Shown: positions 35,310 to 56,401, numbered from the stretch's first letter. The stretch: DNA of 64,000 nt from an uncultured Bacillota bacterium (GCA_963804645.1 CAWDRG010000010.1:128001-192000), one strand, 5' to 3'. Numbers and translations: made by a program. Notes: generated from the letters alone by a model not told the origin.

Positions 35310-36014
35310 CTAGACCGTGTTCACCAATCGCGGCAAACGCTTGCGCAATCGTTCCGGATCCAGCACCTCCACCACACCCCGTCGGCGGCGCACGAATCCT
35401 TCGCGGGCGAGAATCCGAAGCCACCGGTTGATGCTCTCCCGCGTCCCGCCCACGAGTTCGGCCAGTTCCTCCTGCGTCAGCCGGGGGGCGCTTACGACGC
35501 CGTCCGGATCAAGCCGCTCCCTATCCCCCACTTGCGCAAGCCGGAGGAGGACCTTCGTCAAGCGGGTTGGACCATCGAGAAACACCGCGTCGTGTGTCAG
35601 ATCAGTGGTGCGCCGCAACCGGCGGCTCAATGCGGCCAGCAGGGGAGCGACCGCGTTCGGGTGGCTGCCCAAGAACCTCAGGAGGTCCACTCGCTCCAGG
35701 ACGAGGAGCTTGGAGGGGCTCCGTGCCACCGCCGTGGCCGATCGCATGCCACCGTCCAGCAGCGCAAGCTCGCCGAAGAATCCGCCCGATCCGAGCAAGG
35801 CCAGGATGACTTCCTTTCCATCGGGGGAAAGGAGTGTCAATTTCACTTCACCGTCTTGGATGAGGTACAGGGTGGTTCCGGGATCGCCCTCGGAAAAGAT
35901 CACCGCCCCCTTCCGATAGGGATGAGACCGGAAGAACGCCGCGAGAGCATCACACTCAGCGCTCGATAATCCGCCAAAAAGGGGCGTCTCCGCGAGAATC
36001 ATCCGGACGGACAT
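35310..36014 (-). CDS. Crp/Fnr family transcriptional regulator
   Basis: cNMP-binding GELALLDGGMRSATA; HTH TQEELAELVGGTRESINRWL. Confidence 0.93.
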   Translation of the reverse strand: MSVRMILAETPLFGGLSSAECDALAAFFRSHPYRKGAVIFSEGDPGTTLYLIQDGEVKLTLLSPDGKEVILALLGSGGFFGELALLDGGMRSATAVARSPSKLLVLERVDLLRFLGSHPNAVAPLLAALSRRLRRTTDLTHDAVFLDGPTRLTKVLLRLAQVGDRERLDPDGVVSAPRLTQEELAELVGGTRESINRWLRILAREGFVRRRRGVVEVLDPERLRKRLPRLVNTV

Positions 36015-36139
36015 TTCCCCTCCCCGCCCTGTCCGGCGTATCTTTCGATGACACACCGCGCGTGACACAAGCACGCGGGTTTCCGGTCGAGACAGGGGCG
36101 GTTTCCGAATCTAGTATCATGCGCCTGCACATCCGTCAC

Positions 36140-38377: not shown

Positions 38378-38815
38378 GGGAGCGCCAGCTCACCCAGAAC
38401 GTCGGGGGTCGATACTGTCACCGATCCTCCCGGACACCGCGTCCCCAGGCGGCCACCAGCACGCGGGGCACGCTCCAAATCACGTAGCAGGCGTTGTAGC
38501 CGATCAAGGCTGCCAACACGAGCAGCAGGGACGATGGTCAAGTCGCGCACATCCCGCGGTCCTTCAACTTCTTCCAGGTCAGCGGCTGTCTGAACACGTC
38601 CCACACCTCCAAGAACGCCCCGCGCGTCCAGATGCACCTTCTCTTCCCCCTCATAGGATCCTTGCCTGTGCGTCGTGTCAAGCCGAATCGCGTGTACGTG
38701 GGAGACGGCGTTTCCGTCGACCCGGCTCCGCGGAATCCATACGTCGCCCGATAGACGCAAGAGGGTTCAAGCTGTACGTTCAGGGTGGAAACTAGCGCAC
38801 GGGTCGCGTGTACCT

Positions 38816-38902
38816 CCAGCCGATAAGAGCAACCCCCAGCGGCGCGGGGGACGCAAAGCCTACGGGGCCCGATCGTGGGTCAGCCGAGGCTGCCGAAGCT
38901 GG
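38816..38902 (+). ncRNA. GEMM-I (c-di-GMP-I class) riboswitch, A20 variant
   Basis: CCAGCCGATAAGAGCAA-P2-GGACGCAAAGCC-P3-CAGCCGAGGCTGCCGAAGCTGG; P1 CCAGC/GCTGG. Confidence 0.85.
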
Positions 38903-38928
38903 GCAATCGTGTCCGGCTTTTTGCATTT
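38896..38928 (+). terminator. Intrinsic terminator overlapping the riboswitch P1 3' strand
   Basis: AAGCTGGGCA-atcg-TGTCCGGCTT followed by TTTGCATTT. Confidence 0.7.
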
Positions 38929-39076
38929 GTGGAGGAGGAGCTGGAGGAATGACAGCAGGCGGCGTGTTGCGACGGCTGAATTGCCTGGCCAGGCCGGCGT
39001 GCCCAGCGCGGGGACTGAGTGCCTCGGCGCCGACCGAGTGTCGGCCGTATGCGAAGCGCTGCGGGAGGGATCGACG

Positions 39077-39619
39077 ATGCATGCAAGATCGAAGTCGAAG
39101 CTCGCAACCGGCGTTGTGATCGGGATTTGCGTCTTACTGTGGGCCACTCCTCTCGCCGGTCAAGCCCGGGAAGATTGGCCGATCACGGAGACACAAGGAA
39201 TACTTGCGACCGTGGACCTTGCAGGCATGACGGCAACACTCAGTACGCCCGCCGGGCCGCAAGTGTATACGCTGGCATCGATGACCGCCGTGCGTGTGGG
39301 TGGGGAAACGGAGACCCTCGGTGCGCTGCCATCGTTTATCGGTGCCGGGGCGGTGGTGCTGTCGACGACCGTCGGCGGGGCCGCGATTGCGGGGCGCGTG
39401 GATATTCTGGTCTTCCCTGCGGCCGGGACCGTGGGCACGGATACCGGAGGAGCCACCGGCCAAGAGGGTGGGCCAGGCGGCTCGAGCGGGTCCAGCGGCG
39501 CGCGCGTCGGACCCTGCTCGGAGTGCGGCAGCGCAGCGGGGACGGGTCCAGGCGGAGCCGGTGGCGGCGGCAACCGCAGCGGCAACGGCGGTGTTAATGA
39601 AGGCGGCGGTCGGCCATAA
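39077..39619 (+). CDS. Secreted protein of unknown function with Gly-rich tail; paralog of 52347-54125
   Basis: GGGAGG RBS; signal peptide ending [23 protein letters not shown]...DILVFP domain; VGPCSEC. Confidence 0.8.
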   Translation: MHARSKSKLATGVVIGICVLLWATPLAGQAREDWPITETQGILATVDLAGMTATLSTPAGPQVYTLASMTAVRVGGETETLGALPSFIGAGAVVLSTTVGGAAIAGRVDILVFPAAGTVGTDTGGATGQEGGPGGSSGSSGARVGPCSECGSAAGTGPGGAGGGGNRSGNGGVNEGGGRP

Positions 39620-39944
39620 CGACGACGCTCGCGAAGACGGTGACATCTGAGGCGATGGCCTCATCGATGAGACATTCACCATTGCGGAGGTCGGTCAGCA
39701 AGAGTTCGAGGCGTTGACGTAGAGGGTACGGGCCGGAGATCTCTTCGACCCACAGAGGCGACGGACTAGTGTCTGTCGCCTCTGGCGCATCGCGAGGTTC
39801 GCGCGGCGGCGGCGCGGCCCCCGCCGCCGCCGTACCCTACCGGCTAGGCGGCCCGCCATATGGGTATGGACATTTTGGCCCCATCGTGGCATTCTACGCT
39901 GGACGGTCTTGGAAGGTCTGACCGAGCCGACTGAGCGCTCGGGA

Positions 39945-40037
39945 CGTTCCTTCCGAAAGAGCAAACCTGGGGCAACCTAGGGACGCAAAGTCACGGGACC
40001 CTCGACTGAGGGCCAGCCGGATTGCCGAGGAGGAACG
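39945..40037 (+). ncRNA. GEMM-I riboswitch, A20 variant, overlapping the SD of the CAP gene
   Basis: CCGAAAGAGCAAACCTGGG-GCAA-CCTAGGGACGCAAAGTC...CAGCCGGATTGCCGAGGAGGAACG; 5' CGTTCCTTC can pair with GGAGGAACG. Confidence 0.88.
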
Positions 40038-40039
40038 GG

Positions 40040-40573
40040 ATGACGCACCGCCCGCCATCCACCGCACGGAGTGTGTTCCTCATAGTCGCGGCTCTCGCGA
40101 TCGGCGCGATCCCCCAGTCTTCGTCGGCCCAGATCCCGCCGAGTGCGGGAACCGCGATCGTGCGGACCGGCAGCGCGGCCACCACGTATGAGTATCTTAC
40201 TTCGGACGAGAACAAGCTGCTTACCCTGGTCAACGACGTTCGTGCGCAGCATCATCTGGGTCCACTCGCCATGAATCCGTCCCTGCGCCAAGTCGCGCGT
40301 GACCACTCCCGGGAGATGATTCTTCAGGGGTATGTCGGACACGGCTCACCGTCGAACGAATCGTTCCTTGACCGGATGGCGCGAGTCGTCCCGGCCGGCA
40401 CGCGGGTCGGGGAGAACGTGGCCGCCGCGCAAACCGCGGAGGCGGCACATGCGGCATTTGTGGCCAGTACCTACCATCTGCAGAACATGCTGACGCCGAC
40501 GTTCCGCAGGGTGGGAATCGGCATTGCCACCGCCGGGGACGTTGTGATGGTCACGGAGGATTTTGCCGAGTAG
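40040..40573 (+). CDS. Secreted CAP (SCP/Tpx-1/Ag5/PR-1) domain protein
   Basis: Signal peptide; LVNDVRAQH, ARDHSREM, GENVA, HLQNML, VGIG. Confidence 0.9.
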   Translation: MTHRPPSTARSVFLIVAALAIGAIPQSSSAQIPPSAGTAIVRTGSAATTYEYLTSDENKLLTLVNDVRAQHHLGPLAMNPSLRQVARDHSREMILQGYVGHGSPSNESFLDRMARVVPAGTRVGENVAAAQTAEAAHAAFVASTYHLQNMLTPTFRRVGIGIATAGDVVMVTEDFAE

Positions 40574-40683
40574 CTGGCGTCTAACGCTCGTGGGGGAAAG
40601 CGCCCTCCCCATTCCAGCCTGACGCGTCGCGTTCCCCGGCTCCCGCAGCGCGAGCGTGGCTGCCCGGCGCGCCCGCGCGATTC

Positions 40684-42315
40684 CTACGTCGCCCCGCGCC
40701 GAAGATCATGCAGGTGCTTCATGACGCCGGTGCCGCCCTCGCCAAAGTATCGCGCCATGTCGAGATAGTCCCGATACAACTCCTCATAGACCCGCCTCGC
40801 CTGCCCGTCCGGGCGGTAGATCACACGCTCGGCGCTTCCCATCCGCCTGATCACCCCGGTCATGTCTGTCCCGCCGGCGGCCGCTGCGGCCGCGTAGACC
40901 GCCGCACCGACACCCGACGCGTCCGGCACCCGCGCGGCCAGGATCGGCCGTCCCGTCACGTCCGCGGTGATCTGTAGGAGCAGCGCGTTCCGCTCGGCGA
41001 GCCCGCCGCAAGCGTGCACCCCCACCACGGGCACCCCGCCGGCCTCGAACGTCTCGATGACGCGGCGGGTCCCGTACGCCGTCGACTCGAGCAGAGCCCG
41101 ATACACCTCTGCCGGCTCGGTCGTCAGTGTGAGACCCAGCACGGCACCTGAGAGGTCGGCGTCGACGAGCGGCGTGCGGCACCCGTTCCACCAATCGAGC
41201 GCGAGGAGTCCCGACGCGCCGGGAGCGAGCCGGGCGGCCTCGCCCTCAAGTCGCTCGAACACACCGGCCTCTCCATAGCGTGACGGCACGCTCGTCCGCA
41301 CGAACCACTGGAAGATGTCTCCCACAGACGCCTGCCCCGCCTCGTACCCGAACAGCCCGGGCACGATGCCGTCCTCGACCACGCCCGAGATCCCGCGGAC
41401 CGGCCGGCGCTGACCATCGATCATGAGATGGCAGGTGGATGTCCCCATGATCATAACGAGGTGTCCCGCCTCGTGCACGCCGAGCGCCGGCACCGCGGCG
41501 TGGGCGTCGATCACGGCAACCGCTATCGGCGTGCCCGCCCGCAACCCGGTGCGCGACGCCCACGGGGCCGCGAGGCCGCCGGCCCGCGTGCCCACGGGAC
41601 GCGGATCACGGCCCAGCGCACCGCGCAGGCCAGCGAGCCCGGGATCGAGCGCGCGCCAGAACTCTTCCACCGGGTACCCCGCGTCCTTCTGCCAGTGGGC
41701 TTTGTAGCCCGCCTGGCAGGCGCTCCGCGTTTCGGCGCCGGTCAGCTGCCACACGAGCCAGTCGCCGCCCTCGATCCACCGCGCCATCGCGCGCGACACG
41801 GACGCTGGCGCCTCAGCGAGCACCTGCCACCCCTTGGCCCACATCCACTCAGAGGACGTCTTGCCCCCGTAGAGCGCCAGAAACTCTCCGCCCGGCTGCG
41901 CGGCCATGGCGTTGATGCGATCGGCGTACGGCTGCGCCGCGTGGTGCTTCCACAGCTTGGGCCACGCGTGCGGCTCAGCCTGAAACTCCGGGACCAGGCA
42001 CAATGGGGTGCCGTCGGCGGTGGCGGGCAGCACGGTGCACGAGGTGAAGTCGATCCCGATCCCGACGATGTCCTCCGGGCGTCCCCCGGCACCCACGGCA
42101 CGCAGCAGCGTGTCCGCCGCCTCGAGCCAGTCACCCGGATGCTGCAGCGCCCAGTCCGGCGGCAGGCGGTCCGCCCGACCCGGCAGCGTCCGGTCGAGCA
42201 CGCCGTGCGGATACGCGAACGACGCGGACGCCAGCACCCGGCCGTTGTCGACGTCCACCAAGACGCCGCGCGCGGACTCGGTCCCGAAATCGATGCCGAC
42301 CGCGTGGCGGCTCAT
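40684..42315 (-). CDS. araB: Ribulokinase (FGGY family)
   Basis: GIDFGTES, GIDFTSCT, KLWKHHAAQ, DWWNGCRTP. Confidence 0.88.
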   Translation of the reverse strand: MSRHAVGIDFGTESARGVLVDVDNGRVLASASFAYPHGVLDRTLPGRADRLPPDWALQHPGDWLEAADTLLRAVGAGGRPEDIVGIGIDFTSCTVLPATADGTPLCLVPEFQAEPHAWPKLWKHHAAQPYADRINAMAAQPGGEFLALYGGKTSSEWMWAKGWQVLAEAPASVSRAMARWIEGGDWLVWQLTGAETRSACQAGYKAHWQKDAGYPVEEFWRALDPGLAGLRGALGRDPRPVGTRAGGLAAPWASRTGLRAGTPIAVAVIDAHAAVPALGVHEAGHLVMIMGTSTCHLMIDGQRRPVRGISGVVEDGIVPGLFGYEAGQASVGDIFQWFVRTSVPSRYGEAGVFERLEGEAARLAPGASGLLALDWWNGCRTPLVDADLSGAVLGLTLTTEPAEVYRALLESTAYGTRRVIETFEAGGVPVVGVHACGGLAERNALLLQITADVTGRPILAARVPDASGVGAAVYAAAAAAGGTDMTGVIRRMGSAERVIYRPDGQARRVYEELYRDYLDMARYFGEGGTGVMKHLHDLRRGAT

Positions 42316-42322
42316 GCCCTCG

Positions 42323-43738
42323 TCAGGCGAACACCCTGTAGTCGATCCCGAACATCTTCGCGGCCCACACGAGCTCGTCGACGTAGTCGCCGTACACGCC
42401 GTGGATGTGGTTGCTGTCGTACTCGGACAAGAACACGTCCGGGGCCACCCGGAAGCGTGCGAACGCGTGGGGCCACGTCGGGCTCGTCGCGGCGGCCTTG
42501 GCCTGCGCGACCACCGGAGGGAACTCGACGAACTCTCCCGGCACGATCGCAAGCCAGTACCGGCCCCGCCGACGCGCCAGCCGCGCGAGCGTGACCGGGC
42601 CAGGCGCCGCGATGTGCATCACCGACGCGCCGCCGGCGGGAAAGTAGATGTCCGCGGGATACAGGCTCACGCGCGACAGGTTCACCGCGGGGTCGAGGGA
42701 CTTACCCGCGAAGTACGTCGCGTGCTCCCCGGAGTTGCACAGGTCCCAGACGTCGTCGGCCGCGTCGTAGTGCCGCACGTCCGCGAACAGCACGGGGGTC
42801 CCCGCGATGTGCTTGAAGATCTCCATCGTCAGGGCGCCGTCACTGTCCGCCTCGGTCGCGCACACGATCGGATCGTGCGGACCCTCCCAGTCGTACGGGT
42901 CGTTGAGCAGCGCCTCGGCCACATCCATCGTGGCGAAGAAGTTGGTCATCTCCGGCTGGCCCTTGATCCCGCAGAACGCACACCGCCACTCATCGAGGAT
43001 CTCGCGCACCGCCAGGTAGGATTTCAGCTGGCGGCGGAGGAGCGCGGGCGTCAGCCGCTTGCCGTCGTAGTGGATCGCCGCTCCGTGCCGCTCGAGCCAC
43101 GCGATCCCCGCGTCGGCGCGCGTGTCGGCCATCGCGTCGGCGCGGCGGACGATCTCAAACTGATCGATATGCTCGATGTCGATGCCGAACTCGCGCCGCC
43201 ACTGATCGAGCGCGGGCACCGCCGTGTACATGCCCATCGAGCGGCCGCCGATCAGTCCGTAGACCTCGCCGCGGAGGCGGTTCTTCGCGACCGCCGGCCG
43301 CAGAAATCGCAGCACGCGCTGGAACACCGCGTCGTCCCCAATGTCACCCGAGATCCGCCCGCAGAACACCCCGATCTGGTCCAGGCTGCCGGCCGCCGCG
43401 AGCATCGCTACCAACCCCGGATACGTGGGGTTGACGTTGCTCAGCAGGAGTAGCGGGTGCGGGACAAACTCCGCGGCGATCGCGGAGAAATGCGGAAACG
43501 CCCAGATGCCGTAGTTGAAGACGACCGCCTCGACCTCCTGCGCCGCCAGGTACCGCCCCTCGCGCTGCGCGAGATCGGTGGTCCACACGATCTCCCGGCC
43601 GGCGACCACGTCCCATCCGGCCTCGCCGAGCCGCGCGGCCAGGCGCGCCTGGAACTGTTGCGTGAGCGGCAGGAGTTCGCGGTGCATGTGCGGCCGTCCA
43701 TCCGAGAAAGTCAGAATCCCGACCTTCGGCCGTTTCAT
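42323..43738 (-). CDS. L-fucose/L-arabinose isomerase family protein
   Basis: GGRSMGM, GIKGQPEM, CATEADSDG, CNSG, WPHAF, NHIHG. Confidence 0.88.
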   Translation of the reverse strand: MKRPKVGILTFSDGRPHMHRELLPLTQQFQARLAARLGEAGWDVVAGREIVWTTDLAQREGRYLAAQEVEAVVFNYGIWAFPHFSAIAAEFVPHPLLLLSNVNPTYPGLVAMLAAAGSLDQIGVFCGRISGDIGDDAVFQRVLRFLRPAVAKNRLRGEVYGLIGGRSMGMYTAVPALDQWRREFGIDIEHIDQFEIVRRADAMADTRADAGIAWLERHGAAIHYDGKRLTPALLRRQLKSYLAVREILDEWRCAFCGIKGQPEMTNFFATMDVAEALLNDPYDWEGPHDPIVCATEADSDGALTMEIFKHIAGTPVLFADVRHYDAADDVWDLCNSGEHATYFAGKSLDPAVNLSRVSLYPADIYFPAGGASVMHIAAPGPVTLARLARRRGRYWLAIVPGEFVEFPPVVAQAKAAATSPTWPHAFARFRVAPDVFLSEYDSNHIHGVYGDYVDELVWAAKMFGIDYRVFA

Positions 43739-43776
43739 TCGTCACCCCCGTCAAGACGGCTCGCGCCCGGCTTGCG

Positions 43777-44634
43777 TCAGCCCTTGATGCCGGTCGTCGT
43801 GATCCCCTGCGTGAAGTAGCGCTGGAGCAGGAAGAACGCGAGCAGCGCCGGCGCGGTGGCCATCACCGCGGAGGCCAGCGGCGGGCCGAACGCCGGGGCC
43901 GAGCCGCTTGTGCCCGCCTGGGCACCCATGTACTGTGCGATCCCGACCGGCAGCGTGCGGGCGCGGTCGCTGCTCGTCGCGATCAACGGCCACAGGAAGT
44001 TGTTCCACGAGCTGACGAACGTCAGCGCGGCGACCGCGGCCATCGCCGGACGGCTCAGCGGCAGCACCACACGGGCAAAGACCTGCAGGTCCCCGGCCCC
44101 GTCGATCCGCGCGGCCTCCTCGAGCTCGGCGGGAATACCCAGGAAAAACTGCCGCATCAAAAAGACGCCGGTGACGTTTGCGGTCGTCGGTAGAATGAGC
44201 GCCTGGAACGTATCGAGCATGCGGACCTGCGCGAAGATCAGAAACAGCGGAATCACGGTCACCTGGATCGGCACGAGCAGCATCGAGATGATGACGTCGT
44301 AAATGATGCCGCGGCCGGGAAAGGAAAACCGGGCCAGCGCGTAGCCCGCCATCGCATCGATGGCGACGACGATGGCGGTCGCGACGACCGCGACAACGAC
44401 GCTGTTGGCCATCCAGCGGAGGAACGCGTACTTCGCGAGGACCCGCTGGAAGTTTTCCAGCGTCAGCGTCTGCGGGATCCAGTGGGGCGTGGCCGACAGG
44501 ATCTGCCCCTCCGGCTTGAGCGCGGTGGACACCATCCAGATGATCGGGGCGACGGCGATGACCACGATCGCGACCTCGGCCGCGTACATCAGCACCGCGG
44601 CGACCTCGCGGCGGACCGTCCGCCGCGAGGTCAC
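43777..44634 (-). CDS. Carbohydrate ABC transporter permease
   Basis: ELEEAARIDGA, WNNFLWPLI. Confidence 0.9.
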   Translation of the reverse strand: MTSRRTVRREVAAVLMYAAEVAIVVIAVAPIIWMVSTALKPEGQILSATPHWIPQTLTLENFQRVLAKYAFLRWMANSVVVAVVATAIVVAIDAMAGYALARFSFPGRGIIYDVIISMLLVPIQVTVIPLFLIFAQVRMLDTFQALILPTTANVTGVFLMRQFFLGIPAELEEAARIDGAGDLQVFARVVLPLSRPAMAAVAALTFVSSWNNFLWPLIATSSDRARTLPVGIAQYMGAQAGTSGSAPAFGPPLASAVMATAPALLAFFLLQRYFTQGITTTGIKG

Positions 44635-45536
44635 GCCGAGACCTCCGACGGCAGCAGCCGCTGCTGCAGCCACGCCAGCAGCAGCAGCAGCGCAAACGTG
44701 ACGTACGCGATCGCCGACCCGTACCCGAGCTTGAACGTCTGAAACGCCTGGAAAAACAGGTATTGCACGAGGGTCAGCGTGGCCGTGCCGGGGCCGCCGC
44801 CGGTCATGACGTATACCTGGTCGAAGACCTGGAACGTGTTAATGATGGTCAGCATGACGACGACGAACGTCGTCGGACGCAGCAGAGGGATCGTGATGTG
44901 CCGCAGCACCTGCCAGGCGCCCGCGCCGTCGATCCGCGCCGACTCCTCGAGCTGCGGCGGGATGTCCTGCAGGCCGGCCAGGAAGATCACCATGTTGTAG
45001 CCGATGGTCCACCACACGGTGGTCAGCGCGATCGCGGGCATGGCCGCGATCTGACTGGACAGCCATGGGATCGGGCCGAGGTGGACCTTGGCGAGATAGT
45101 AGTTCAGCAGCCCGAAGTTGCTGTCAAGGATCCACGTCCAGAGAATGCCGACGACGGCCGACATCATCGCGTACGGCGCGAAGATCAGCACCCGCGCCGC
45201 ACCGCGGCCGGCGATGGGCCGGTTGAGGAGCAGCGCGAATGCGAGTCCGAGTACGATCAGCGTGGGCGCCGTGAGGAAGAGGAAGTAGAACGTGTTCGCG
45301 ACCGATGTGAAGAACAGCGGGTCGTGGACGAGCGCGCGGTAGTTCGCGAGTCCGACGAACTTCGGCGAGCCGACGATGCTCCACGACGTGAAGCTCGTCA
45401 GGAACCCGCCGACGACCGGACCGAACCGGAACAGGACGAAGACAACGAGATACGGCAGCAGAAACAGATACGGCGTAAATGGGGACCCACCCCCCACGAG
45501 GCGGTGCCCGTGTGCGCGCTGAGGCAGGACCTTCAT
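44631..45536 (-). CDS. Carbohydrate ABC transporter permease
   Basis: EESARIDGA, FQVFDQVYVMTGGGP. Confidence 0.9.
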   Translation of the reverse strand: MKVLPQRAHGHRLVGGGSPFTPYLFLLPYLVVFVLFRFGPVVGGFLTSFTSWSIVGSPKFVGLANYRALVHDPLFFTSVANTFYFLFLTAPTLIVLGLAFALLLNRPIAGRGAARVLIFAPYAMMSAVVGILWTWILDSNFGLLNYYLAKVHLGPIPWLSSQIAAMPAIALTTVWWTIGYNMVIFLAGLQDIPPQLEESARIDGAGAWQVLRHITIPLLRPTTFVVVMLTIINTFQVFDQVYVMTGGGPGTATLTLVQYLFFQAFQTFKLGYGSAIAYVTFALLLLLAWLQQRLLPSEVSA

Positions 45537-45592
45537 CGTCGACGAGACGGCCCGGAGGTTCCGATGCCTCCGGGCCGCCGAACCGGCTCCGA

Positions 45593-46891
45593 CTAGGGTG
45601 CCGCCAGAATCGCGTTGACCCGATTCCGCAACTCCTGCGTCACCTGCGCGACGGGCACGTCTCGCACCAGCGCGGCCTGCGCGGCCACCACGATCGGGCT
45701 GGGCGCCGCGGATGAGTACAGCTGCGCCGACTGCGTGACGTCGGGCAGCATGATCTCATACGCCTGCTCCTCCAGGAACCCCCTGCGCCCCGGAAGCGCC
45801 CGGAATGCGGCCGAGGTCCGGGCCGACAGCAGCGCCGGCAGGTTGCCGGAATTGCCCCATTCCTGGTCATGCTGCACGATCCACGTCGCCAGGGTGAGCG
45901 CGGCCTGCTCGCGCGCCTTGTCGTTCTGCTTGGGGATCGTCAGCAGGTGGCCGCTTCCCCACGCGGCCGGTGCCGCGAAGACCCGCGGAAACGTCGTGGT
46001 GTCCCAGTGGAGTCCCTTGACCGTGTTCAGACCGGGAATCTCCCACGGGCCGTCGATCAGCATCGCGACATGCTTCGTCACGAAGTCCTGGTACGGGTTC
46101 GTCTCGCCGACGGGGACGACGTGGTACTTGAACACGAGGTCCTGCAGCCACTGCCACGCCGCGTTCGACTTCGCGTCGCTGAACGCCGTACGGGTGAAGT
46201 CCGGCGCGATGAACGGGTCGCCCTGCTGGGCGAGCAACGCGTACCACATATAGAACCCGTGGTGGTTGTTCATCATCCCGACGCCGTACTGCGTGATCGT
46301 CTTCGGGTCGAATCCGGGATCGTCGGGATGGCGGCCGGCGGCGTCAACCGTCAGCTTCTTCGCCGCGGCAACGAAGTCGTCCCCGGTCGTCGGCAGCTTG
46401 GCGGGATTCAGCCCCGCCTGCTTCCACATGTCCGTATTCACGTACACGGCGTGCATGTGCATGTCCAGCGGGATCGCATACTGCGTCCCCTTGTAAAACG
46501 TGCCCTTCCAGGCGACGTCCATGAAATCCGACGCCTTGAACCCGGCACCCGTCACCATGGAGCCCATTGGCTCCAGAATGCCGAGCGTCGAGAACTGGGA
46601 GATGTCCTGGGAGTGCATCCCCATCAGATCGGGGGGCTGCCCGGCCCGCACCGAGGTCAGCAGCTTGTCGAACAGCGGCGTCCACTGCAGCGTCGTGAGC
46701 GTCACCCGAATATCGGGGTGTTCTTTATTGAACTGATCAACCATCTGGTGCATCACGTCGCCGTCGGGTCCGGTCCACCCACCCCAGAACGCGAGGTCCA
46801 TGGGCGCGGCGGCCCGCGCTGGGGGCAAAGACGGCGCCACCACGAACGAGACGAGCACCAGGCACAACGCGAGACTCCATAGGCGTCGCAT
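45593..46891 (-). CDS. Carbohydrate ABC transporter substrate-binding protein
   Basis: Signal peptide; FWGGWTGPDG; PPDL; AMLIDGPW. Confidence 0.9.
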   Translation of the reverse strand: MRRLWSLALCLVLVSFVVAPSLPPARAAAPMDLAFWGGWTGPDGDVMHQMVDQFNKEHPDIRVTLTTLQWTPLFDKLLTSVRAGQPPDLMGMHSQDISQFSTLGILEPMGSMVTGAGFKASDFMDVAWKGTFYKGTQYAIPLDMHMHAVYVNTDMWKQAGLNPAKLPTTGDDFVAAAKKLTVDAAGRHPDDPGFDPKTITQYGVGMMNNHHGFYMWYALLAQQGDPFIAPDFTRTAFSDAKSNAAWQWLQDLVFKYHVVPVGETNPYQDFVTKHVAMLIDGPWEIPGLNTVKGLHWDTTTFPRVFAAPAAWGSGHLLTIPKQNDKAREQAALTLATWIVQHDQEWGNSGNLPALLSARTSAAFRALPGRRGFLEEQAYEIMLPDVTQSAQLYSSAAPSPIVVAAQAALVRDVPVAQVTQELRNRVNAILAAP

Positions 46892-47116
46892 CGGCTACCC
46901 TCCGTGTGAATGCATCCGTCCGGCGCCCGCGCACCCAAGCCAAACGCCGCGACCGGAGGCGGTCTCTCATGCCGCCTCAATATAAAGGCTAGCGCCTCCC
47001 GAACCGGGCGCACTATCAGGCGCAGGCCCGATATTGGCACACCCCTGGGTCGGCCCGGAAGGAGGCGTACCCCGCCCGCCAAAGGACTCCCGCCGGGCCC
47101 GACAGAAGGTGGCGGC

Positions 47117-49078
47117 GTGCCGGTCGTGCGATGGGAAGACCTCATTCCGCGATGGAGCGGCGCGGAACCGTTCGGCGAGGTCATCGGTCACCACCCAAGC
47201 GTCGTCTGCGGGCCGCTCGCCGTCGGGCTGTGGGCGGCGCCGGCGCTCGCGTCCGCGGACGTGGGCTCCGGAACGGACGGACGCGACCTCCTCGTCGCCT
47301 GTTGGGACGCGTGCTTCGAGGGAGGTGTCTACCGCTTCCGAGGCCTCACCGCGGAGCTGAACGTCGAGGGGCCGGCCGAGCGCATTCCCGGCCTCTTTGG
47401 AAACGTCGATTCCGTGCCGCTGAGCGCCTCGTCTGCGCTGCTCAGCGTGACGCGGGACCGCCCCGAGGTCCTGCTGCGACAGGGAGGCTCTGCCGGGGAG
47501 CCGGCGGCCCTCGAGCTCGAGATCCTATGGGTGCGCGGTCCCGAGACGCTGCACGTCGTCAGAGCCTGCGACCTCGACGGCGACGGCATGTGGGACCTCC
47601 TGATCGGGACGGACGATTGGACGGACTACTGGCCGGACCGGCGCGAGTGGAACGATCCAGACTATCGCCCGTACGACGCGGGCGGCGGGTGGCGCGGGGG
47701 ACCGCTCCGGGGCCACGTCTACGCGGCGCTCAACAGCGGCACCAACGAGCGGCCCCGCTTCGAGCGGGCGCGGCCGCTCGTGTGCGGGAGCCAGGCCTTG
47801 GAGGTGTACGGGGCTGCGGCGCCCGCGTGGGCGGATTTTCTGGTGTGCGGACGGCCGGACCTGGTGTGTGGAGATTTCCTCGACCAGCTCTGGTTTTTCC
47901 GGCACGTCGGCGGTCTCGCGTTCGATCCGCCGGTACCGGTCCTCGGCCCGGACGGTCGTGCCCTCAAGCTCCCGCAGAACATCCACGTGCCGATCGCCGT
48001 GCCGAGCGTCGACGGACGCGACGGACATTCGCGTCCGCCGGCGCTCCTGGTCGGCGCGGAGGACGGACTGGTGCAGCGACTTGCTCCATTGTCTCCAGCG
48101 GCGCGGACGCCAGCGTACGCCATGCCCGGGCCCGTGCTTCAACCCTGGCCCCCGCTCCACCCCGGAATCGTCCCGGTCCCGACGGTATGCGACTGGACAA
48201 ACGGCGGCGGCCGGGACCTCATTATCGGCACCGGCGGAGGATGGCTGCGTTGGTATCCTGACCTGGGCGGCGATCCCGTGCGTCGCCACGGAGAACCGCT
48301 CACACTCCGGACGGCATCGCGTCCGATTCGGATACAGGCGGGGCACAACGGGTCTATTCAGGGACCCTCCGAAGCGAAATGGGGCTACCTGTGTCCCACC
48401 GCCGCAGACTGGGACGACGACGGTCGCGTGGAGATCTTGGCGAGCGACGTGATGGGCCGCCATCTTCTGTTTGCTCGCACGGGTGACCCCAGCGTCCTGG
48501 AGGAACCGGTGACGCTCCGCTACGGCAGCACGCCACTGCGTACCGCTTGGCGGGTACGCCCGGCGGTCACGGAATGGGGCGGCGCTCGCGGCGATCGACG
48601 ATACGTGTGCGTGGACAGCGACGGTCTGCTGGTCGATCTGGCTCAGGCCGGCCTGGACCTCCTCTCAGACAAACGCGTGCTCCGGTACGCGGACGGCGTC
48701 CCCATCGCGTTCACGGAGGACGGCGGCGGAGGCCTCGGTCGCGTCAAGCTCGCGGTCTGCGATTGGACCGGTTCGGGACTCGGCGACCTGCTGGTGGGAA
48801 CGCACGCGCGGGCATCGGTGCCTCCTGGTCTCTCGGGCGCACCCCGACACACGCACGGACAGGCAACGGTGCTGCTGCTCGAGAATCTCGGGACGCCCGG
48901 GCACCCGACGTTCGGACGGCCCCGCCAACTCTGCTATCGTGGAGCGCCGGTCCGGTACGGCATGCACGCATGCTCACCCGCGCCCGCGGACTGGTTCGGA
49001 CGGGGCGTCCTCGATCTGGTCGTCGGTGCCGAAAGCGGAACGCTCGTACTGTTGAGGCGGGAGTGGCTCACCTGGTAG
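47117..49078 (+). CDS. FG-GAP/VCBS-repeat beta-propeller protein, no obvious signal peptide
   Basis: Repeated DLDGDGMWDLLIG, DWTNGGGRDLIIG, DWDDDGRVEIL, DWTGSGLGDLLVG, DWFGRGVLDLVVG. Confidence 0.8.
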   Translation: MPVVRWEDLIPRWSGAEPFGEVIGHHPSVVCGPLAVGLWAAPALASADVGSGTDGRDLLVACWDACFEGGVYRFRGLTAELNVEGPAERIPGLFGNVDSVPLSASSALLSVTRDRPEVLLRQGGSAGEPAALELEILWVRGPETLHVVRACDLDGDGMWDLLIGTDDWTDYWPDRREWNDPDYRPYDAGGGWRGGPLRGHVYAALNSGTNERPRFERARPLVCGSQALEVYGAAAPAWADFLVCGRPDLVCGDFLDQLWFFRHVGGLAFDPPVPVLGPDGRALKLPQNIHVPIAVPSVDGRDGHSRPPALLVGAEDGLVQRLAPLSPAARTPAYAMPGPVLQPWPPLHPGIVPVPTVCDWTNGGGRDLIIGTGGGWLRWYPDLGGDPVRRHGEPLTLRTASRPIRIQAGHNGSIQGPSEAKWGYLCPTAADWDDDGRVEILASDVMGRHLLFARTGDPSVLEEPVTLRYGSTPLRTAWRVRPAVTEWGGARGDRRYVCVDSDGLLVDLAQAGLDLLSDKRVLRYADGVPIAFTEDGGGGLGRVKLAVCDWTGSGLGDLLVGTHARASVPPGLSGAPRHTHGQATVLLLENLGTPGHPTFGRPRQLCYRGAPVRYGMHACSPAPADWFGRGVLDLVVGAESGTLVLLRREWLTW

Positions 49079-49835
49079 GCTGCGCGCCGCGCGAGAAATC
49101 GCGAAACCGCGAGCGCCCGCGGATCGCTGCGGCCCGGTCCTCGCGGCCGGGCGTGAGGCCACGGGAGATGCCGGCGCTGCCGGGCACTCGTCGAAACGGG
49201 TCATACCGACTGGCAGACTGAACGGACGCACCTACCCAACGCGCGCTCAGGACATGGTGCCGGGCCCAACCAACCTGGATCGGACCGTGGGCAACGCTGA
49301 TCATGGCGGCGGATACCCAAAGACGTTGAGGCGCCGGTGCCCAGTCCCCGATCATCGGAACTTGGGGAGACTGGGCGAATCGGACACTCAAAGAAGTCCG
49401 CGGCAGCTTGGCGAACACCCTGTCGACGCACGAACGCCGCGGCCTAGACGTAGGGGATGGCACATGCGCGCGCGAACAGGGCTCCAGTAAGTTCGCCCCA
49501 GCCGCCCCCTGGAAGGCGCCGTGCACGACGCTCCCAACGTGTCCGCTCACCCACGCGAGTTATCTCGCCCCAGGCAAAGTGGTCCTGCTGCTGCTCGTCG
49601 CGCATGCCGTGGCGGTCGTTCTGCCCGACACGCTGCGCCGCACACGCGGCCGCAACTTGGGAATCCACGCTTAACCCTAGGCAAAAATATTTGAAATTTT
49701 GAGAGCGTCGCAAGTTGCGTGGGTCCCGAGAGTCGACTGGGCTCACAGATCGGTATCGTGCGGTTGCCAGGCCCTGAACGCCGGCCGGCCTTCAAGCACA
49801 ACACGTCTCCCGCTCCCCACCGGCGGAGGGGCCGA

Positions 49836-50225
49836 TCATGCGTAGCTCTGCTCTGCGATGAGCCGGGTAGGGTAGCCGAGAATGGTGCGGACGGTCCTGG
49901 CGTCTTTGGCAACGTAGACGAAAGCGTCGCCGTCGATCTGGTACTGGCCGGTCCACCCGATGGTGAAACTGGTGGCCGTATCTTCCACCTGCACTGGCAG
50001 AGGATCGCCCTCGCGGGCCACCGGCGTGGCGAGTTGATCGGCAGGATCCAAGACCCAGGCGTCGCCCGTCTCGGAGGAGAAGAGGACGAGTGGCCCGACG
50101 GTGATGATCCGACTGTCGTAGTCGGCGGCGCGGCGTTGAATGTACTGCACTTCGTCGGCGAGCCGCCACCTCGCTCCGTCCACCAACCTGGTCTCGTGGC
50201 CCTGCTTGCGCGATCGCCGAGCCAT
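49836..50225 (-). CDS. Hypothetical 129-aa accessory protein, divergent from the putative transposase
   Basis: Globular, non-shadow composition (GPLVLFSSETGDAWVLDP, GWTGQY); GAGGTGG upstream. Confidence 0.7.
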   Translation of the reverse strand: MARRSRKQGHETRLVDGARWRLADEVQYIQRRAADYDSRIITVGPLVLFSSETGDAWVLDPADQLATPVAREGDPLPVQVEDTATSFTIGWTGQYQIDGDAFVYVAKDARTVRTILGYPTRLIAEQSYA

Positions 50226-50277
50226 GCGCGTGTGTCCACCTCGGGTCCTATCTGCGGCGCGGGAGGGACCGATCCCG

Positions 50278-51897
50278 ATGGAACGATTCTACCAATTGTT
50301 TGGCAAGTTCCTCGTGTTTGTCTACCATTGTTTCGATCGCATCGTGATCAACGGCTACTTGACCGGCCTGATGCGCCCGGAGAATGCGGTGTATTTTTTC
50401 CGAGACGTCCTGGGACGCCGCGCCATCACCAAAGAGGTGCTGCGGCAGCGGACCACCGATTACGCCCACTGGGTCGAGGCCTACGCGCGGAATCACCATG
50501 TGCCCATCGAGTGGGCTGCGAAGGGGGTCCGGAAAGAAGACTATGTGCGGCCGAGGCTGCGCCGGATGGAACGTGCGCACCGGTATGGGGTCTACTTCAT
50601 CTTCAAGAGCATGGAACAAGGCCTGACGTTTCGTTCCATCATGCCCAAGTTTCCCACTGCGGATCCCGATTACCGCATCCTCCGCCCGCACCGGAGCCGC
50701 TTCACGCACTACTACTTCTACCTCCGGGACCACATCCTTGGGCCGATGGTGGTGCGGGTCGCCTCGTTCGTGCCGTTTCATACGACCTACTACCTCAACG
50801 GGCACTCGTTCATCGAACAAGAGCTGACCCGAGTCGGGCTCGCCTTCCGCAAGGACGATAATGCGTTTCTGGCCGTCGCAGATCCGACCGCCCTCCAGGC
50901 GGCCGCCGATCGCCTGAGCCCAACCGTCATTCAGCATCGGCTTGACTACTGGACCCTCGTGCTTGGCCCGAAGTTTTCTCGACGCGAACGCCAAGCCATG
51001 ATGCTGCGCCGGTTCTACTTTCTCCAACAGGTCGAATACTGCCGAAACTTCATCTTCAAGCGGTGCTTCCCGATCCACACGCTTTTTGAGCGGTCCTGCG
51101 AGCTCGGCCTCAGCCAGTTGACCGCGCACCAGCTCTCCGAGGTCTTCGGCCTACGCCTGACCAAGCGGCTCAAGGGGAAGTTGCACACCACGCTCGAGCA
51201 ACTCGCACAAGGCCATCATATCCTCCGGATCTATTGCAAGAGCGCCTTCCTCCGGCAGTACGAGAAGTTCGCCATGTTCCTGCGCAACGAGCTCTGCTCC
51301 AATAACCTCGCCGACTTCCAGCTGAAGAAAGGCCTCGCGCATCTGGGCGCCGTGCGGGAGACGTTTCTCGCCATCACCGACCGCTTCGCCGACGCGCAGG
51401 CGCAGTGGCTCAACGTCCACGTGGAGTTTCCACTCCTCCAACGCGTGGCGCTCCCGATTCAGGTCGGTACCGCCAAGGTGCCGGGCATCAAGATTCACGA
51501 CGCCCGCATGATCCGCCTCATGGAAGTGCTGCTGGACGGGCGCACCATCATCGGTGGTCAGCGGGCGACAGAACTGCACCAGGCTGTCGTGACTCGATTC
51601 CATCTCTCCGCCGAGCGGTACGGGCTCAACCAACTCCGGTACGACCTCCGCAAGCTCCGGGCGCATGGGCTCCTCCAACGGGACGGCCGCCGCTACGCAT
51701 ATCGCCTGACCGACAAGGGGCTCCGCGTCGCTCTTCTCTTCCTGCTCTTCCATCAGCGACTCTGCGGACCTCTCGCTCACAGCCTCTTTCATCACCGGCC
51801 CGATCCCAAGACCCAGCTCAACAGTCCTCTCGAAGCGGCCTACCACAAAGCCGATGCGGCGATTCAGGACATCATTCAGCTGTTGCAGGCTGCTTGA
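50278..51897 (+). CDS. Putative transposase/Rep-like protein with C-terminal winged helix
   Basis: GGGAGGG RBS; CFDRIVINGYL N-terminus; LRQYEK...LRNE; YDLRKLRAHGLL...YRLTDKG; basic, aromatic-rich. Confidence 0.65.
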   Translation: MERFYQLFGKFLVFVYHCFDRIVINGYLTGLMRPENAVYFFRDVLGRRAITKEVLRQRTTDYAHWVEAYARNHHVPIEWAAKGVRKEDYVRPRLRRMERAHRYGVYFIFKSMEQGLTFRSIMPKFPTADPDYRILRPHRSRFTHYYFYLRDHILGPMVVRVASFVPFHTTYYLNGHSFIEQELTRVGLAFRKDDNAFLAVADPTALQAAADRLSPTVIQHRLDYWTLVLGPKFSRRERQAMMLRRFYFLQQVEYCRNFIFKRCFPIHTLFERSCELGLSQLTAHQLSEVFGLRLTKRLKGKLHTTLEQLAQGHHILRIYCKSAFLRQYEKFAMFLRNELCSNNLADFQLKKGLAHLGAVRETFLAITDRFADAQAQWLNVHVEFPLLQRVALPIQVGTAKVPGIKIHDARMIRLMEVLLDGRTIIGGQRATELHQAVVTRFHLSAERYGLNQLRYDLRKLRAHGLLQRDGRRYAYRLTDKGLRVALLFLLFHQRLCGPLAHSLFHHRPDPKTQLNSPLEAAYHKADAAIQDIIQLLQAA

Positions 51898-52030
51898 GCG
51901 GGACTCGGTGCGCCCTTCTTGAAATCTTGAAGTGCTTCTGTCGAGGAAAGAGCGGCTAAGAATCTATAGACCACGAGCATTTCAAAGCGTATATTTTGGG
52001 TGGATAGGAGAACACGGGGCACCTGGACCT

Positions 52031-52118
52031 CCAGTCGATAAGAGCACCCTCCGATCGCGCGGAGGACGCAAAGCCACCGGGGCCCAATAACGGGACTAGC
52101 CGGGGCTGCCGAAGCTGG
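52031..52118 (+). ncRNA. GEMM-I riboswitch, A20 variant
   Basis: CCAGTCGATAAGAGCA-P2-GGACGCAAAGCCACCGGGG-P3-TAGCCGGGGCTGCCGAAGCTGG. Confidence 0.85.
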
Positions 52119-52145
52119 ACGCAACCGTCCAGCTTCTTTGATTTG
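52112..52145 (+). terminator. Intrinsic terminator overlapping the riboswitch P1 3' strand
   Basis: AAGCTGGACG-caac-CGTCCAGCTT followed by CTTTGATTT. Confidence 0.75.
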
Positions 52146-52346
52146 GGGAGGCTAGTCGGAGGCGCGCGGTGCGTGGGCTACTAGCCCGGCAAGATCGCGT
52201 AAGCACTGTGAGGCAGGAATGGGGGCGAGAATAAATTAGGGACAACGAGTCGGCTCGCGTGACGAATGATCGACCAATTACCCAAACCCGAGGCTGGGGG
52301 GACTCGGGCGCGCTAGGGAGGTTGGGACGCACTGGAGGAGTGGGTC

Positions 52347-54125
52347 ATGCAAGCAAGATCAAAGCTCCAGATGGTAATCATCGTAATACTTGGGATTTCT
52401 CTTACACTGTGGGGCATTCCCCTCGCGGGCCAAACACAGGAACCCCCATCAATCACTCGGACTGAGGGAATTCTCGCGTCCGTAGATCTTGCAGGCATGA
52501 CGGCGACGCTCAACATCCCCGCCGGGCAGCGCGTGTATGAACTGACGTCGGTCACCGATGTGCGCGTTGGCGAGGAGACAGAATCCATCAATGCACTGGC
52601 AACATTCGTCGGCGCGGCAGCGGTTGTGCTGTCGACCAATGTTAACGGTACCCAGGTTGCTGGGAGCTTGGACATCTTGGTCTTCCCCGTAGCCGGGACC
52701 GTGGAAGCTACCCTAGGAGCGGGGACGGAATACGGCGGCCCTCCTCCTGTTAGCGGTAGTCCGATTGTAAGTAACACGACGCGCGGCACTACCACTGGCG
52801 GCGGCGCTACTACTGGCGGCGGCACTACTACTGGCGGCGGCACTACTACCGGCGGCGGCACTACTACCGGCGGCAGCGGCAACAAAGGTGGTTGGGGCGG
52901 CTTTGGCGGTTGGGACTATTTCCGCGGTTGGGACCATTTCCGCGGTTGGGACCACTTCGGCGGTTGGGGCCGCTTCGACGGTCGGGACCGCTTCGGCGGT
53001 TGGGATCGCTTCGACGGTCGGGACCGCTTCGGCGGTTGGGATCGCTTCGACGGTCGGGACCGCTTCGGTGATAGGGACCCCTTCGGCGGTTGGGACGGTC
53101 GCGGCGGTTGGGGCGGCGTTGGGCCGTGTGCAATCTGCGATGATGCGCACGGGCTCATCCCTGACCCTAACCCTAAGGGCGGTAATCACAACGGCAAGGA
53201 TGGCGGCAAGGGTTACGATGGCGGCGGTAAGGGCGGCAGCCACGACCCCGGCTACGATGGCGGCGGTAAGGGCGGCAGCCACGACTCCGGCTACGATGGC
53301 GGCGGTAAGGGCGGCAGCCACGACCCCGGTTACGATGGCGGCGGTAAGGGCGGCAGCCACGACCCCGGCTACGATGGCGGCGGTAAGGGCGGCAGCCACG
53401 ACCCCGGCTACGATGGCGGCGGTAAGGGCGGCAGCCACGACTCCGGCTACGATGGCGGCGGTAAGGGCGGCAGCCACGACCCCGGTTACGATGGCGGCGG
53501 TAAGGGCGGCAGCCACGACCCCGGCTACGATGGCGGCGGTAAGGGCGGCAGCCACGACCCCGGCTACGATGGCGGCGGTAAGGGCGGCAGCCACGACCCC
53601 GGCTACGATGGCGGCGGTAAGGGCGGCAGCCACGACTCCGGCTACGATGGCGGCGGTAAGGGCGGCAGCCACGACCCCGGCTACGATGGCGGCGGTAAGG
53701 GCGGCAGCCACGACCCCGGCTACGATGGCGGCGGTAAGAGCGGCAGCCACGACCCCGGCTACGATGGCGGCGGTAAGGGCAACTACGGCGAGTCCATCGG
53801 CGAGCACGGATACGGCGGTGGCGATGACTACGGCAAGGGGTACGACGACAGCGGCCGTGACGGTGGCGGACATGATCGCGGCCACGAGAATGGCGGCCGT
53901 GACGGCGGCGGGCATGATCGCGGTCACGAGAACGGCGGCCATGAGAACGGCGGTCACGAGAATGGCGGTCATGAGGGCGGCGGCCATGAGGGCGGCGGCC
54001 ATGAGGGCGGCGGCCATGAGGGCAGCGGCCATGAGGGCGGCGGCCACGAAGGCGGCGGCCATGAGGGCGGCGGCCATGAGGGCGGCCACGATGGCGGCGA
54101 TCACGACTGCGGTGACAGAGGCTGA
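52347..54125 (+). CDS. Secreted protein: conserved N-domain plus multi-block Gly/His/Asp repeat tail
   Basis: GGAGG RBS; signal peptide; N-domain paralogous to 39077; [25 protein letters not shown] and GGGHE repeat blocks. Confidence 0.85.
53211..53780 (+). repeat. 39-bp tandem repeat, 14 full copies plus a partial ([12 protein letters not shown][P/S])
   Basis: Unit ggctacgatggcggcggtaagggcggcagccacgacccc; 14 x 39 bp spans 53211-53756. Confidence 0.95.
53930..54095 (+). repeat. 15-bp tandem repeat encoding (G/N)GGHE, about 11 copies
   Basis: ggcggcggccatgag units. Confidence 0.9.
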
Positions 54126-55269: not shown

Positions 55270-55379
55270 CCTCCGCTATGTCCGTCACCTCCCGTGCCGA
55301 CACTTTCGGCCCGCTCCCATGGTTACCGCGCTGCGGCGTTTCAGTTGCTCCCCCTGGGTGCGTGAGTTCCTTAGCCCAG

Positions 55380-56401
55380 GCCACCTGCTATCACCCGCTG
55401 CTGCTGTTCAACCGGGAGGGCGATTGTCTGGCGGTGAAGCTGCGGCCCGGGAACGTCCACAGCGCTGAGGACTGGGACGCCGCGCTCCTGCCGGAGATCG
55501 AGCGGCAGCAGAAGCAAGGCAAGGACGTCGTGGTGCGGGCCGACGCGGGCTTCACCAAGCCGGAGCTGTACGAGGTCCTGGAGAAGCGCGGCGTGAAGTA
55601 CGCGATTCGCATTCCCTTCAACGACACACTGGAGCAGGCTGTCGCGGAGTTGCTGACGAGGCCCGTGGGGAGACCCAGTCACAAGCCGGTGGTGCGGTAT
55701 ACGAGCTTCCGCTACGAAGCCGGCAGTTGGAAGATCGCGCGACGGGTGGTGGCGAAGATCGAGTTCCACTGCGAAGAACTGTTCCCCCGAGTGGGCTTTA
55801 TCGTCACAACCCTGGCGACGGATAGCCGGGGAGTGGTGCGGTTCTATAACAAGCGCGGGACGGCAGAACAGTGGATCAGGGCCGGCAAGGAGGCGGTGAA
55901 GCTGACGCGGCTGAGCTGCCACCGCTTCCGGGCGAACGAGGTGCGGTTGTGGCTGAGCGTGATCGCGTACAATCTGGGAAACTTGTGGCGCCGGCTCGGC
56001 CTGCCGAAGCGGCTCGACACGTGGTCGCTGACAAGTCTGCAGCAGCGGTGGATGAAAACGGGCGGCCGGCTCGTGAAGCACGCCCGGTACTATTGGCTGT
56101 TGCTGGCGGAGGAACACCTGACCCGGCGGCTGTTCGGGGCGATCCTGCGACGGCTGGAGGCGGTGCCGGGGCCTGCGGGATAGCGCAGGCCCTCGCTCGT
56201 TGCAGCCACCTCGGGCGGCAAGGGGGCCGAGAATGGGGCAGTGTCCGAGAAATCGAATGGGGGTACGTCCGTACCAGGTGGGAAAGGGCGCGGGAGGATC
56301 AAACAGGCTTTCGCGGGTGGCTGCTGGACGCGGGCCAGCCCGAAGGTCGGATCGGAACCTCTCGTAGGAGGACCTCGGAAACGCAAAACGGAAATTCCCG
56401 A
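55380..56401 (+). mobile_element. 5'-truncated IS1380-family element (transposase fragment ends 56183; right end about 56401)
   Basis: CYHPL...LRPGNVHSA, VRADAGF, YNKRGTAEQWI, AYNL motifs; end-like CAAAACGGAAATTCCCG. Confidence 0.85.

Follow-up and report, generated by a model that had tools for sequence, protein, structure and literature searches.

A20-type GEMM-I riboswitches ahead of secreted-protein genes in an uncultured Bacillota bacterium, with c-di-GMP as the probable ligand

The stretch of DNA analysed here (the window; 64,000 nucleotides, CAWDRG010000010.1:128001-192000 of assembly GCA_963804645.1, from an uncultured Bacillota bacterium) carries three GEMM-I riboswitches in front of genes for secreted proteins. 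The three elements are genuine GEMM-I riboswitches of the natural A20 subtype, in which the guanosine at position 20 (numbering of the Vc2 aptamer) is replaced by an adenosine. They probably sense cyclic di-GMP (c-di-GMP), with an affinity that would be altered and is likely to be weaker, two of them acting as ON switches and one as an OFF switch; both c-di-GMP as the ligand and a tuning of the response threshold are what we infer from the evidence below. A20 is widely used as shorthand for a riboswitch that senses 3′,3′-cyclic GMP-AMP (cGAMP), and this shorthand would predict a cGAMP regulon in the source genome. However, no synthase was recognisable in that genome or in 60 relatives, and in the relatives the same genes stand under G20 switches.

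All three aptamers lie on the + strand and were matched by cmscan against Rfam 15, where the gathering cut-off of RF01051 is 35 bits. Riboswitch 1 (38818-38897, RF01051, 37.6 bits) and riboswitch 3 (52033-52113, RF01051, 36.0 bits) score above this cut-off, and riboswitch 2 (39951-40030) is matched nearly equally by RF03168 (67.3 bits) and RF01051 (67.0 bits). An earlier note on this DNA had proposed GEMM-I aptamers starting at 38816, 39945 and 52031, with an A before the G21-C46 pair at 38828, 39960 and 52043; the three covariance-model matches, each over the gathering score, bear out the former, and the coordinates of the A proved exact in the printed alignments. This A occupies model position 11, the equivalent of Vc2 G20, where the consensus is G. 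The G20 expected of members of the class, which pairs with Gα of c-di-GMP, is therefore absent from all three aptamers. G19 and G21-C22 are retained in each of them, GGGC reading GAGC, and since G19 is kept this is a clean G-to-A change and no shift in the alignment. Also retained throughout are A47 (the A of GACGCAAAG) and C92 (in UG-C-CGA; 38893, 40025 and 52109). Assignment of riboswitch 2 to c-di-GMP-I-UAU (RF03168) was ruled out, as it has A20 and C92 where the consensus of that class has U20 and U92.

With R1, a covariance model built from the source lineage, riboswitches 1, 2 and 3 score 61.3, 83.5 and 68.2 bits, and a further A20 switch of the same genome, on contig C18, scores 78.4 bits. 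When 60 aptamers of the genus were aligned, 94.6% of the cells were paired and 18 of the 22 pairs had changed on both sides, the alignment being fitted to R1, which favours such pairing statistics; none of 500 shuffles reached any of the pairing measures, and slid controls were at most 46% paired. The P2 loop of riboswitch 2 is GCAA, of the GNRA type. Those of riboswitches 1 and 3 are AGCGGCGC (8 nucleotides) and AUCGCG (6 nucleotides), neither of which is GNRA. GEMM representatives without the tetraloop exist, and about 23% of GEMM-I aptamers carry A20.

Riboswitches 1 and 3 are paralogous to each other, and so are the genes downstream of them. In riboswitch 1 (38816..38902), P1 is formed by 38816-38822 with 38894-38902, A20 is at 38828, A47 at 38855 and C92 at 38893; in riboswitch 3 (52031..52118), P1 is formed by 52031-52037 with 52110-52118, with A20 at 52043 and C92 at 52109. 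In both, P1 pairs 5′-CCAG(C/U)CG with CG-AA-GCUGG, and its 3′ strand (GCUGG) doubles as the beginning of an intrinsic terminator's 5′ arm. The terminator of riboswitch 1 (38895..38923, +) has an 11-pair stem, the loop ATCG and a T run, and that of riboswitch 3 (52111..52146, +) a perfect 11-pair stem (GAAGCTGGACG/CGTCCAGCTTC), the loop CAAC and a T-rich tail. They hold the two highest ranks among the terminator-like sites of 38400-52500. The unconstrained fold of riboswitch 1 contains P2, P3 and the terminator (-55.7 kcal/mol), while enforcing P1, as read from the sequence, removes the terminator (-43.4 kcal/mol). Because the 3′ strand of P1 overlaps the terminator 5′ arm, we infer that riboswitches 1 and 3 are transcriptional ON switches. 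P1, once stabilised by the ligand, would block termination and allow read-through, turning on the secreted proteins P0002 and P0001. The A20 switch on C18 has the same terminator design. Finally, a promoter-like site on the + strand, identified by consensus match only (51967..51995; TAGACC, 17 nucleotides, TATATT), lies about 36 nucleotides upstream of P1 of riboswitch 3.

Riboswitch 2 (39945..40037) has an extended P1 of about 11 pairs (39945-39955 with 40026-40037), with A20 at 39960 and C92 at 40025, and it has no terminator. The 3′ strand of P1 includes the Shine-Dalgarno (SD) sequence, GGAGGA (40029-40034), which is separated by five bases from the ATG at 40040. Because the SD sits inside P1, riboswitch 2 is probably a translational OFF switch, in which ligand binding would lower translation of a secreted CAP-domain protein. 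In the G20 orthologues of riboswitch 2 from five members of the genus, the anti-SD (CUUCC) and the SD (GGAGG) are likewise part of P1, and the folds of three of them (G002, G005 and G006) also contain an upstream hairpin able to sequester the anti-SD.

Behind riboswitch 1 lies the gene for P0002 (39077..39619, +; 180 amino acids), with a signal peptide, a beta domain of about 80 residues that resembles an OB fold, a Gly-rich tail and no Pfam family. Riboswitch 2 precedes the gene for P0003 (40040..40573, +; 177 amino acids), with a signal peptide and a CAP/SCP domain (PF00188, E = 7.2e-17), and riboswitch 3 that for P0001 (52347..54125, +; 592 amino acids), in which a signal peptide and the domain shared with P0002 are followed by a long repeat region. 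P0001 and P0002 share 61% identity across their first 119 residues, which comprise the signal peptide and the domain. The tail of P0001, several hundred residues long, consists of four low-complexity blocks: Gly/Thr, Gly/Trp/Asp/Arg (GGWDRF-like), about fourteen further repeat units, and Gly-His-Glu. This composition suggests a metal-binding or matrix protein. The proposal that the switches control secreted, largely uncharacterised proteins thus agrees with what was identified downstream. The span 38816-52145 given with this proposal is not one unit: between switches 2 and 3 lies an unrelated minus-strand cluster of sugar-catabolism genes (kinase and isomerase) and ATP-binding cassette transporter genes, together with other genes. 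The three switches are independent transcription units and form no single locus.

Searches of Pfam with P0001, P0002 and their shared domain gave no match. The AlphaFold model of the domain, made from an 11-sequence alignment, is a small beta-barrel with a predicted local distance difference test score above 90 over residues 41-110. Its best Foldseek neighbours in the PDB are the CusF/SilF OB-fold metallochaperones (E = 1.5e-4, target TM-score 0.64-0.73, 11-15% identity). The 11-sequence family alignment has no invariant His, Met or Trp, and there is thus no indication of a metal site of the CusF type. The domain family was found only in the bacterial family to which the window belongs, where 19 of 22 genomes have it against 0 of 38 from other families, and P0002 alone, as a query against a general collection of genome contigs, found no relative. 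A third paralogue of P0002 is encoded elsewhere in the genome (contig C19:220270-221030, locus L197); it has the signal peptide and the domain only, with a stop after 112 amino acids. A search upstream of it returned no aptamer, even when filtering was switched off and E values up to 1 were allowed. About 27 tandem copies of the 10-mer GTAGTACTGG immediately precede its start codon; this array could be a phase-variable or spacing element.

Four RNA libraries carrying the label peat metagenome, all from a single study and no more than three samples, contain contigs that match the window at 95-100% identity. These contigs cover the region of riboswitch 1 (38796-39084 and 39055-39768) and that of riboswitch 3 (52013-52190, 52015-52225 and 52091-52803), spanning in both cases the aptamer, the terminator and the start of the open reading frame, and they carry A20 unchanged. 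The contigs start about 10-20 bases upstream of P1, which for riboswitch 3 is about 20 bases downstream of the promoter-like -10 box; they prove neither the ends nor the abundance of transcripts, and may reflect DNA carry-over. The intervals 40093-44800, which includes the CAP gene, and 46996-51774 have no contig cover, from which absence of transcription cannot be concluded.

The source assembly (G000; 5.3 Mb, 22 contigs, 96.8% complete) contains seven GEMM-I aptamers, four with A20 and three with G20. Besides the three A20 aptamers of the window, which lie on contig C10 and control P0002, the CAP protein and P0001, the search of the genome for further A20 switches found one more, on C18 within 10930-11020, ahead of a PATR-repeat, adhesin-like secreted protein. 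The G20 aptamers on C8 and C2 stand before PATR-repeat paralogues of this protein, and the one on C4, with G20 and a U at position 92, before PilT-like ATPases. The N-termini of the C18, C8 and C2 PATR proteins are nearly identical, and A20 and G20 switches therefore control one adhesin gene family within one genome. The possibility that C8 and C18 are strain copies of one locus was ruled out: the DNA is 72-87% identical, with repeats, as in paralogues. A G20-pattern match at C15:445995 was also rejected, as it lies in coding DNA. At the C4 locus (C4:57907-59400, locus L005) the aptamer has G20, the sequence UGUCGGA (U92), a terminator and a long insertion in P3. Of the PilT-like genes behind it, the first can be read only across two frames, which reflects either a frameshift or an assembly error; it is followed by the second one and by a sigma factor.

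GEMM-I aptamers were found in all but one of the 61 genomes sampled from the order, 316 matches altogether. Position 20 was read by R1 alignment for the 52 matches of five genus members, where a single match has A20 and the rest have G20, and by pattern for the others. The A20 pattern gave 31 matches in the 61 genomes, about 15 of which read as real aptamers: the four of the source genome and 11 in ten relatives, one of these from an unpublished genome (G034). The other 16 or so were set aside as not aptamer-like; the reversed-pattern control gave 13 matches. For the G20 pattern there were 249 matches, against 14 in the control. Among the 60 relatives, about 11 A20 aptamers thus compare with about 235 G20-pattern matches.

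Both kinds of switch stand before the same gene families. Tandem G20 switches immediately precede the closest P0002 orthologues in G001, G002 and G003 (two each) and in G006 (three). In G005, one locus (C154) has a G20 switch before the P0002 orthologue and a second one ahead of the neighbouring CAP gene, and another (C349) has an A20+G20 pair before the P0002 orthologue. A single A20 switch precedes the orthologue in G015, G017 and G019. CAP orthologues were placed behind G20 switches, from coordinates, in at least ten relatives. Within the genus, CAP and P0002-type genes are adjacent and each has its own G20 switch (usually two in tandem for the second), with a gene order opposite to that of the window (G002:C57:3990-5800, G005:C154:300-1830, G001:C4:220-1950 and G003:C39:260-1960). 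Across the relatives and the paralogues of the source genome, the gene set of the A20 switches is not distinct from that of the G20 switches. Position 20 thus flips between G and A before the same genes, a pattern that fits one messenger more readily than two.

Published A20 aptamers are not uniformly selective for cGAMP. Vc2 carrying G20A binds c-di-GMP at 53 nM and cGAMP at 120 nM, and the natural A20 aptamer Cbe 1-2 at 30 nM and 463 nM, respectively (PMC6140456). The same work describes binding of c-di-GMP through a stably protonated A20, calls bispecific binding widespread for the class, and suggests P1 stability as a contributor to selectivity. Moreover, an A20 paralogue from Desulfobacca has gained affinity for cGAMP with its c-di-GMP affinity slightly reduced (PMC9481103). 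A20 is, in the cases tested, necessary for cGAMP selectivity and not sufficient for it. In the window, c-di-GMP would be recognised through a protonated A20, as in other A20 aptamers. The affinity would probably be weaker than that of the G20 switches of the same genome, giving a response at a different c-di-GMP threshold.

A source of cGAMP was looked for among the known synthase families. The Hypr signature was taken from PMC6456294, according to which GacA has Ser348 in place of the canonical Asp, at a position 9 residues downstream of Asn339 and 26 upstream of the D in GGDEF. The site read was PleD-D344/GacA-S348, which is the D of the GHxxGD motif and comes 9 residues downstream of the N in FKxxND. 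Ser/Thr variants are reported there only with GGDE[F/Y]; in addition, S348D makes GacA a diguanylate cyclase, so enzymes of the Asp type are expected to make c-di-GMP. We collected 140 GGDEF-domain matches from 11 genomes: 7 from the source genome, 88 from G001, G002, G003, G005 and G006 (genus), and 45 from G004, G007, G015, G017 and G019 (family), a set that includes family members with A20 switches. The selectivity site is Asp in 124 of these, Ser/Thr in none, and degenerate or in a fragment in 16; all six readable domains among the seven of the source genome have the canonical Asp. No Hypr GGDEF was thus found among the 140 domains. Likewise, SMODS (PF18144), marking cGAS/DncV-like nucleotidyltransferases, had no match in the source genome or in any of the 61 genomes of the order, the control matching in E. 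coli and archaea. The DncV-like family PF21654 also gave no match, but its control matched nowhere and this search is uninformative. The earlier note had proposed cGAMP as a possible ligand, and had counted the lack of a cGAMP synthase, together with a preference for c-di-GMP, among the findings that would speak against it. As far as can be told from sequence, neither a recognisable Hypr-type GGDEF nor a SMODS-type nucleotidyltransferase is encoded in the source genome, and with the same gene families under G20 and published A20 variants often bispecific or c-di-GMP-preferring, the proposal of cGAMP is not supported.

Two large GAF-rich GGDEF proteins of the source genome (C9:359404-363273 and C17:420994-423972) have Asp at the selectivity site and His for Arg at the cross-dimer position (LNHR), counted here from the sequence; this position is described as differing in Hypr enzymes (PMC6456294). 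The NHR variant is common in the GGDEF proteins of the relatives. Five GGDEF proteins of the source genome, one each on C9, C15 and C19 and two on C17, combine an undamaged GGDEF motif with a substrate loop of the NRR type. In G005, a divergent GGDEF gene (C349:2279-4453) adjoins the A20+G20 tandem ahead of the P0002 orthologue.

Several observations weigh against c-di-GMP as the ligand. A20 makes up four of the seven aptamers of the source genome and about 5% of those in relatives, which makes the source genome an outlier. There have been no fewer than three independent G-to-A changes, one of them common to riboswitches 1 and 3, and these look like selection for something, for which threshold tuning is only one candidate. 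A20 is also found ahead of the adhesin orthologue in the closest relative, G004 (65% complete), and being common to both genomes it has been maintained. The GNRA-type P2 loop present in all 52 genus homologues has been lost from riboswitches 1 and 3, whose Rfam scores are barely above the cut-off and whose affinity for any ligand is uncertain. The synthase searches span known families only, in a genome that is 96.8% complete. Furthermore, in Geobacter, position 20 is the only one shown to switch aptamers between cGAMP and c-di-GMP (PMC6456294): Gs1761 prefers cGAMP about 1200-fold (PMC6456294), and A20G turns Gm0970 from cGAMP to c-di-GMP selectivity (PMC6456294; PMC6140456).

These points bear first on a true 3′,3′-cGAMP regulon, made up of GEMM-Ib-like switches and supplied by a synthase of an unrecognised family or one encoded in the unassembled 3% or so of the genome. 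This we consider unlikely. The species would have moved four of seven GEMM-I-controlled transcripts from c-di-GMP to cGAMP, far from Geobacter and in a peat and soil lineage, and A20 and G20 adhesin paralogues would answer to different messengers. Such a regulon would account for the A20/A47/C92 signature of all four A20 aptamers, for the enrichment of A20 and for its conservation in G004; the terminator-type switches would be ON, as in Geobacter (PMC6456294), and the His substitution of the two GGDEF proteins falls at a position noted in the same paper. It is harder to reconcile with the absence of Ser/Thr from the 140 GGDEF domains and of SMODS from the 61 genomes, with G20 control of the A20-regulated gene families in relatives and among the paralogues, one orthologue (in G005) even standing behind both kinds of switch, and with the bispecific binding reported for natural A20 aptamers outside Geobacter (PMC6140456; PMC9481103). 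cGAMP is only disfavoured, however, because ligand preference cannot be read from sequence.

Alternatively, riboswitches 1 and 3 may be decaying and bind nothing well, their genes being controlled mainly by promoter strength and leaky termination. This seems to us a degree less likely still. The low Rfam scores, P2 loops that depart from the GNRA type of all 52 homologues, and a third paralogue that has no riboswitch and stops after the domain speak for decay. Yet P1, P2 and P3 are intact in both, with compensatory differences (CCCCC/GGGGG against CCUCCG/CGGAGG), and the ACGCAAAGC core and C92 are unchanged. A strong terminator overlaps P1 precisely in each, so that a dead aptamer would silence the gene, yet RNA-library contigs bridge the terminator; and riboswitch 2 and the C18 switch depart from the canonical aptamer in A20 only, as their R1 scores indicate. 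Least probable of all, in our estimate, is a dual or other ligand: both messengers, a linear breakdown product (pGpA or pApG) or an extracellular cyclic dinucleotide, the switches responding to a signal that G20 aptamers ignore. A20 aptamers are bispecific in vitro (PMC6140456), and the A20+G20 tandem of G005 would make sense as a two-input device, tandem logic being reviewed in PMC9481103. Nevertheless, no source of a second ligand was found in the SMODS and DncV-like searches, the latter uninformative, and a literature search turned up no published GEMM-I variant for linear dinucleotides; the case is an argument from possibility. c-di-GMP, sensed with altered affinity, therefore remains the reading we prefer.

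Other features of the window include, on the minus strand, a gene for a Crp/Fnr-type regulator with a cyclic-nucleotide-binding domain (35310-36074; PF00027, PF13545), 2.7 kb upstream of riboswitch 1, and domains D1-D4 of a group II intron (62274-62418; RF02003, 86 bits, E = 1.9e-17). A DDE transposase fragment (55278-56183, +; PF13701, profile positions 165-432 only) lies 1.1 kb downstream of the P0001 gene.

The case is of value as a natural experiment on the power of position 20 to predict the ligand. If c-di-GMP binding is true, it would be a natural example of a G20-to-A20 change that tunes sensitivity and not the ligand, and a warning against annotating ligands from one nucleotide. If the switches are instead selective for cGAMP, the genome would point to an unknown cGAMP synthase, and the matched A20/G20 paralogue pairs would be useful for finding other selectivity determinants. 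With either ligand, a second-messenger input is assigned to an unannotated, family-restricted family of secreted proteins.

Compared with known systems, the present aptamers share with c-di-GMP-I (RF01051, Vc2 of Vibrio cholerae) the three-helix fold with covariation, the GACGCAAAG core, the intercalating A47 and C92, as well as the coupling of P1 to a terminator or SD and adhesin, pilus and secreted-protein targets. They differ from it in having A20 and, in riboswitches 1 and 3, in lacking the P2 GNRA loop; the CUAA/AUG tetraloop-receptor bulges of the RF01051 consensus are gaps across the whole source lineage. To c-di-GMP-I-UAU (RF03168) the likeness is that its model scores best in Rfam for the 39951 aptamer, while the defining U20 and U92 are absent. 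The GEMM-Ib switches of Geobacter (Gs1761, Gm0970) are alike in A20, A47 and C92, in comprising predicted ON switches with intrinsic terminators and in having extracellular proteins among their targets (PMC6456294). However, Geobacter has the Hypr GGDEF enzyme GacA (Ser348), a type without a counterpart among the 140 domains, and its A20 switches control cytochromes and pili, whereas here A20 and G20 switches share gene families. In Desulfobacca acetoxidans, related c-di-GMP-I aptamers of one genome also differ at position 20 (PMC9481103), although there they occur in tandem with adenosylcobalamin switches, while the present ones are single units, tandem arrays of 2-3 copies being confined to relatives. 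Finally, Cbe 1-2 of Clostridium beijerinckii and Vc2 G20A have A20 within an otherwise c-di-GMP-I aptamer (PMC6140456), as found here; they belong to another phylum and other genes, but by analogy the window A20 aptamers are expected to behave like them.

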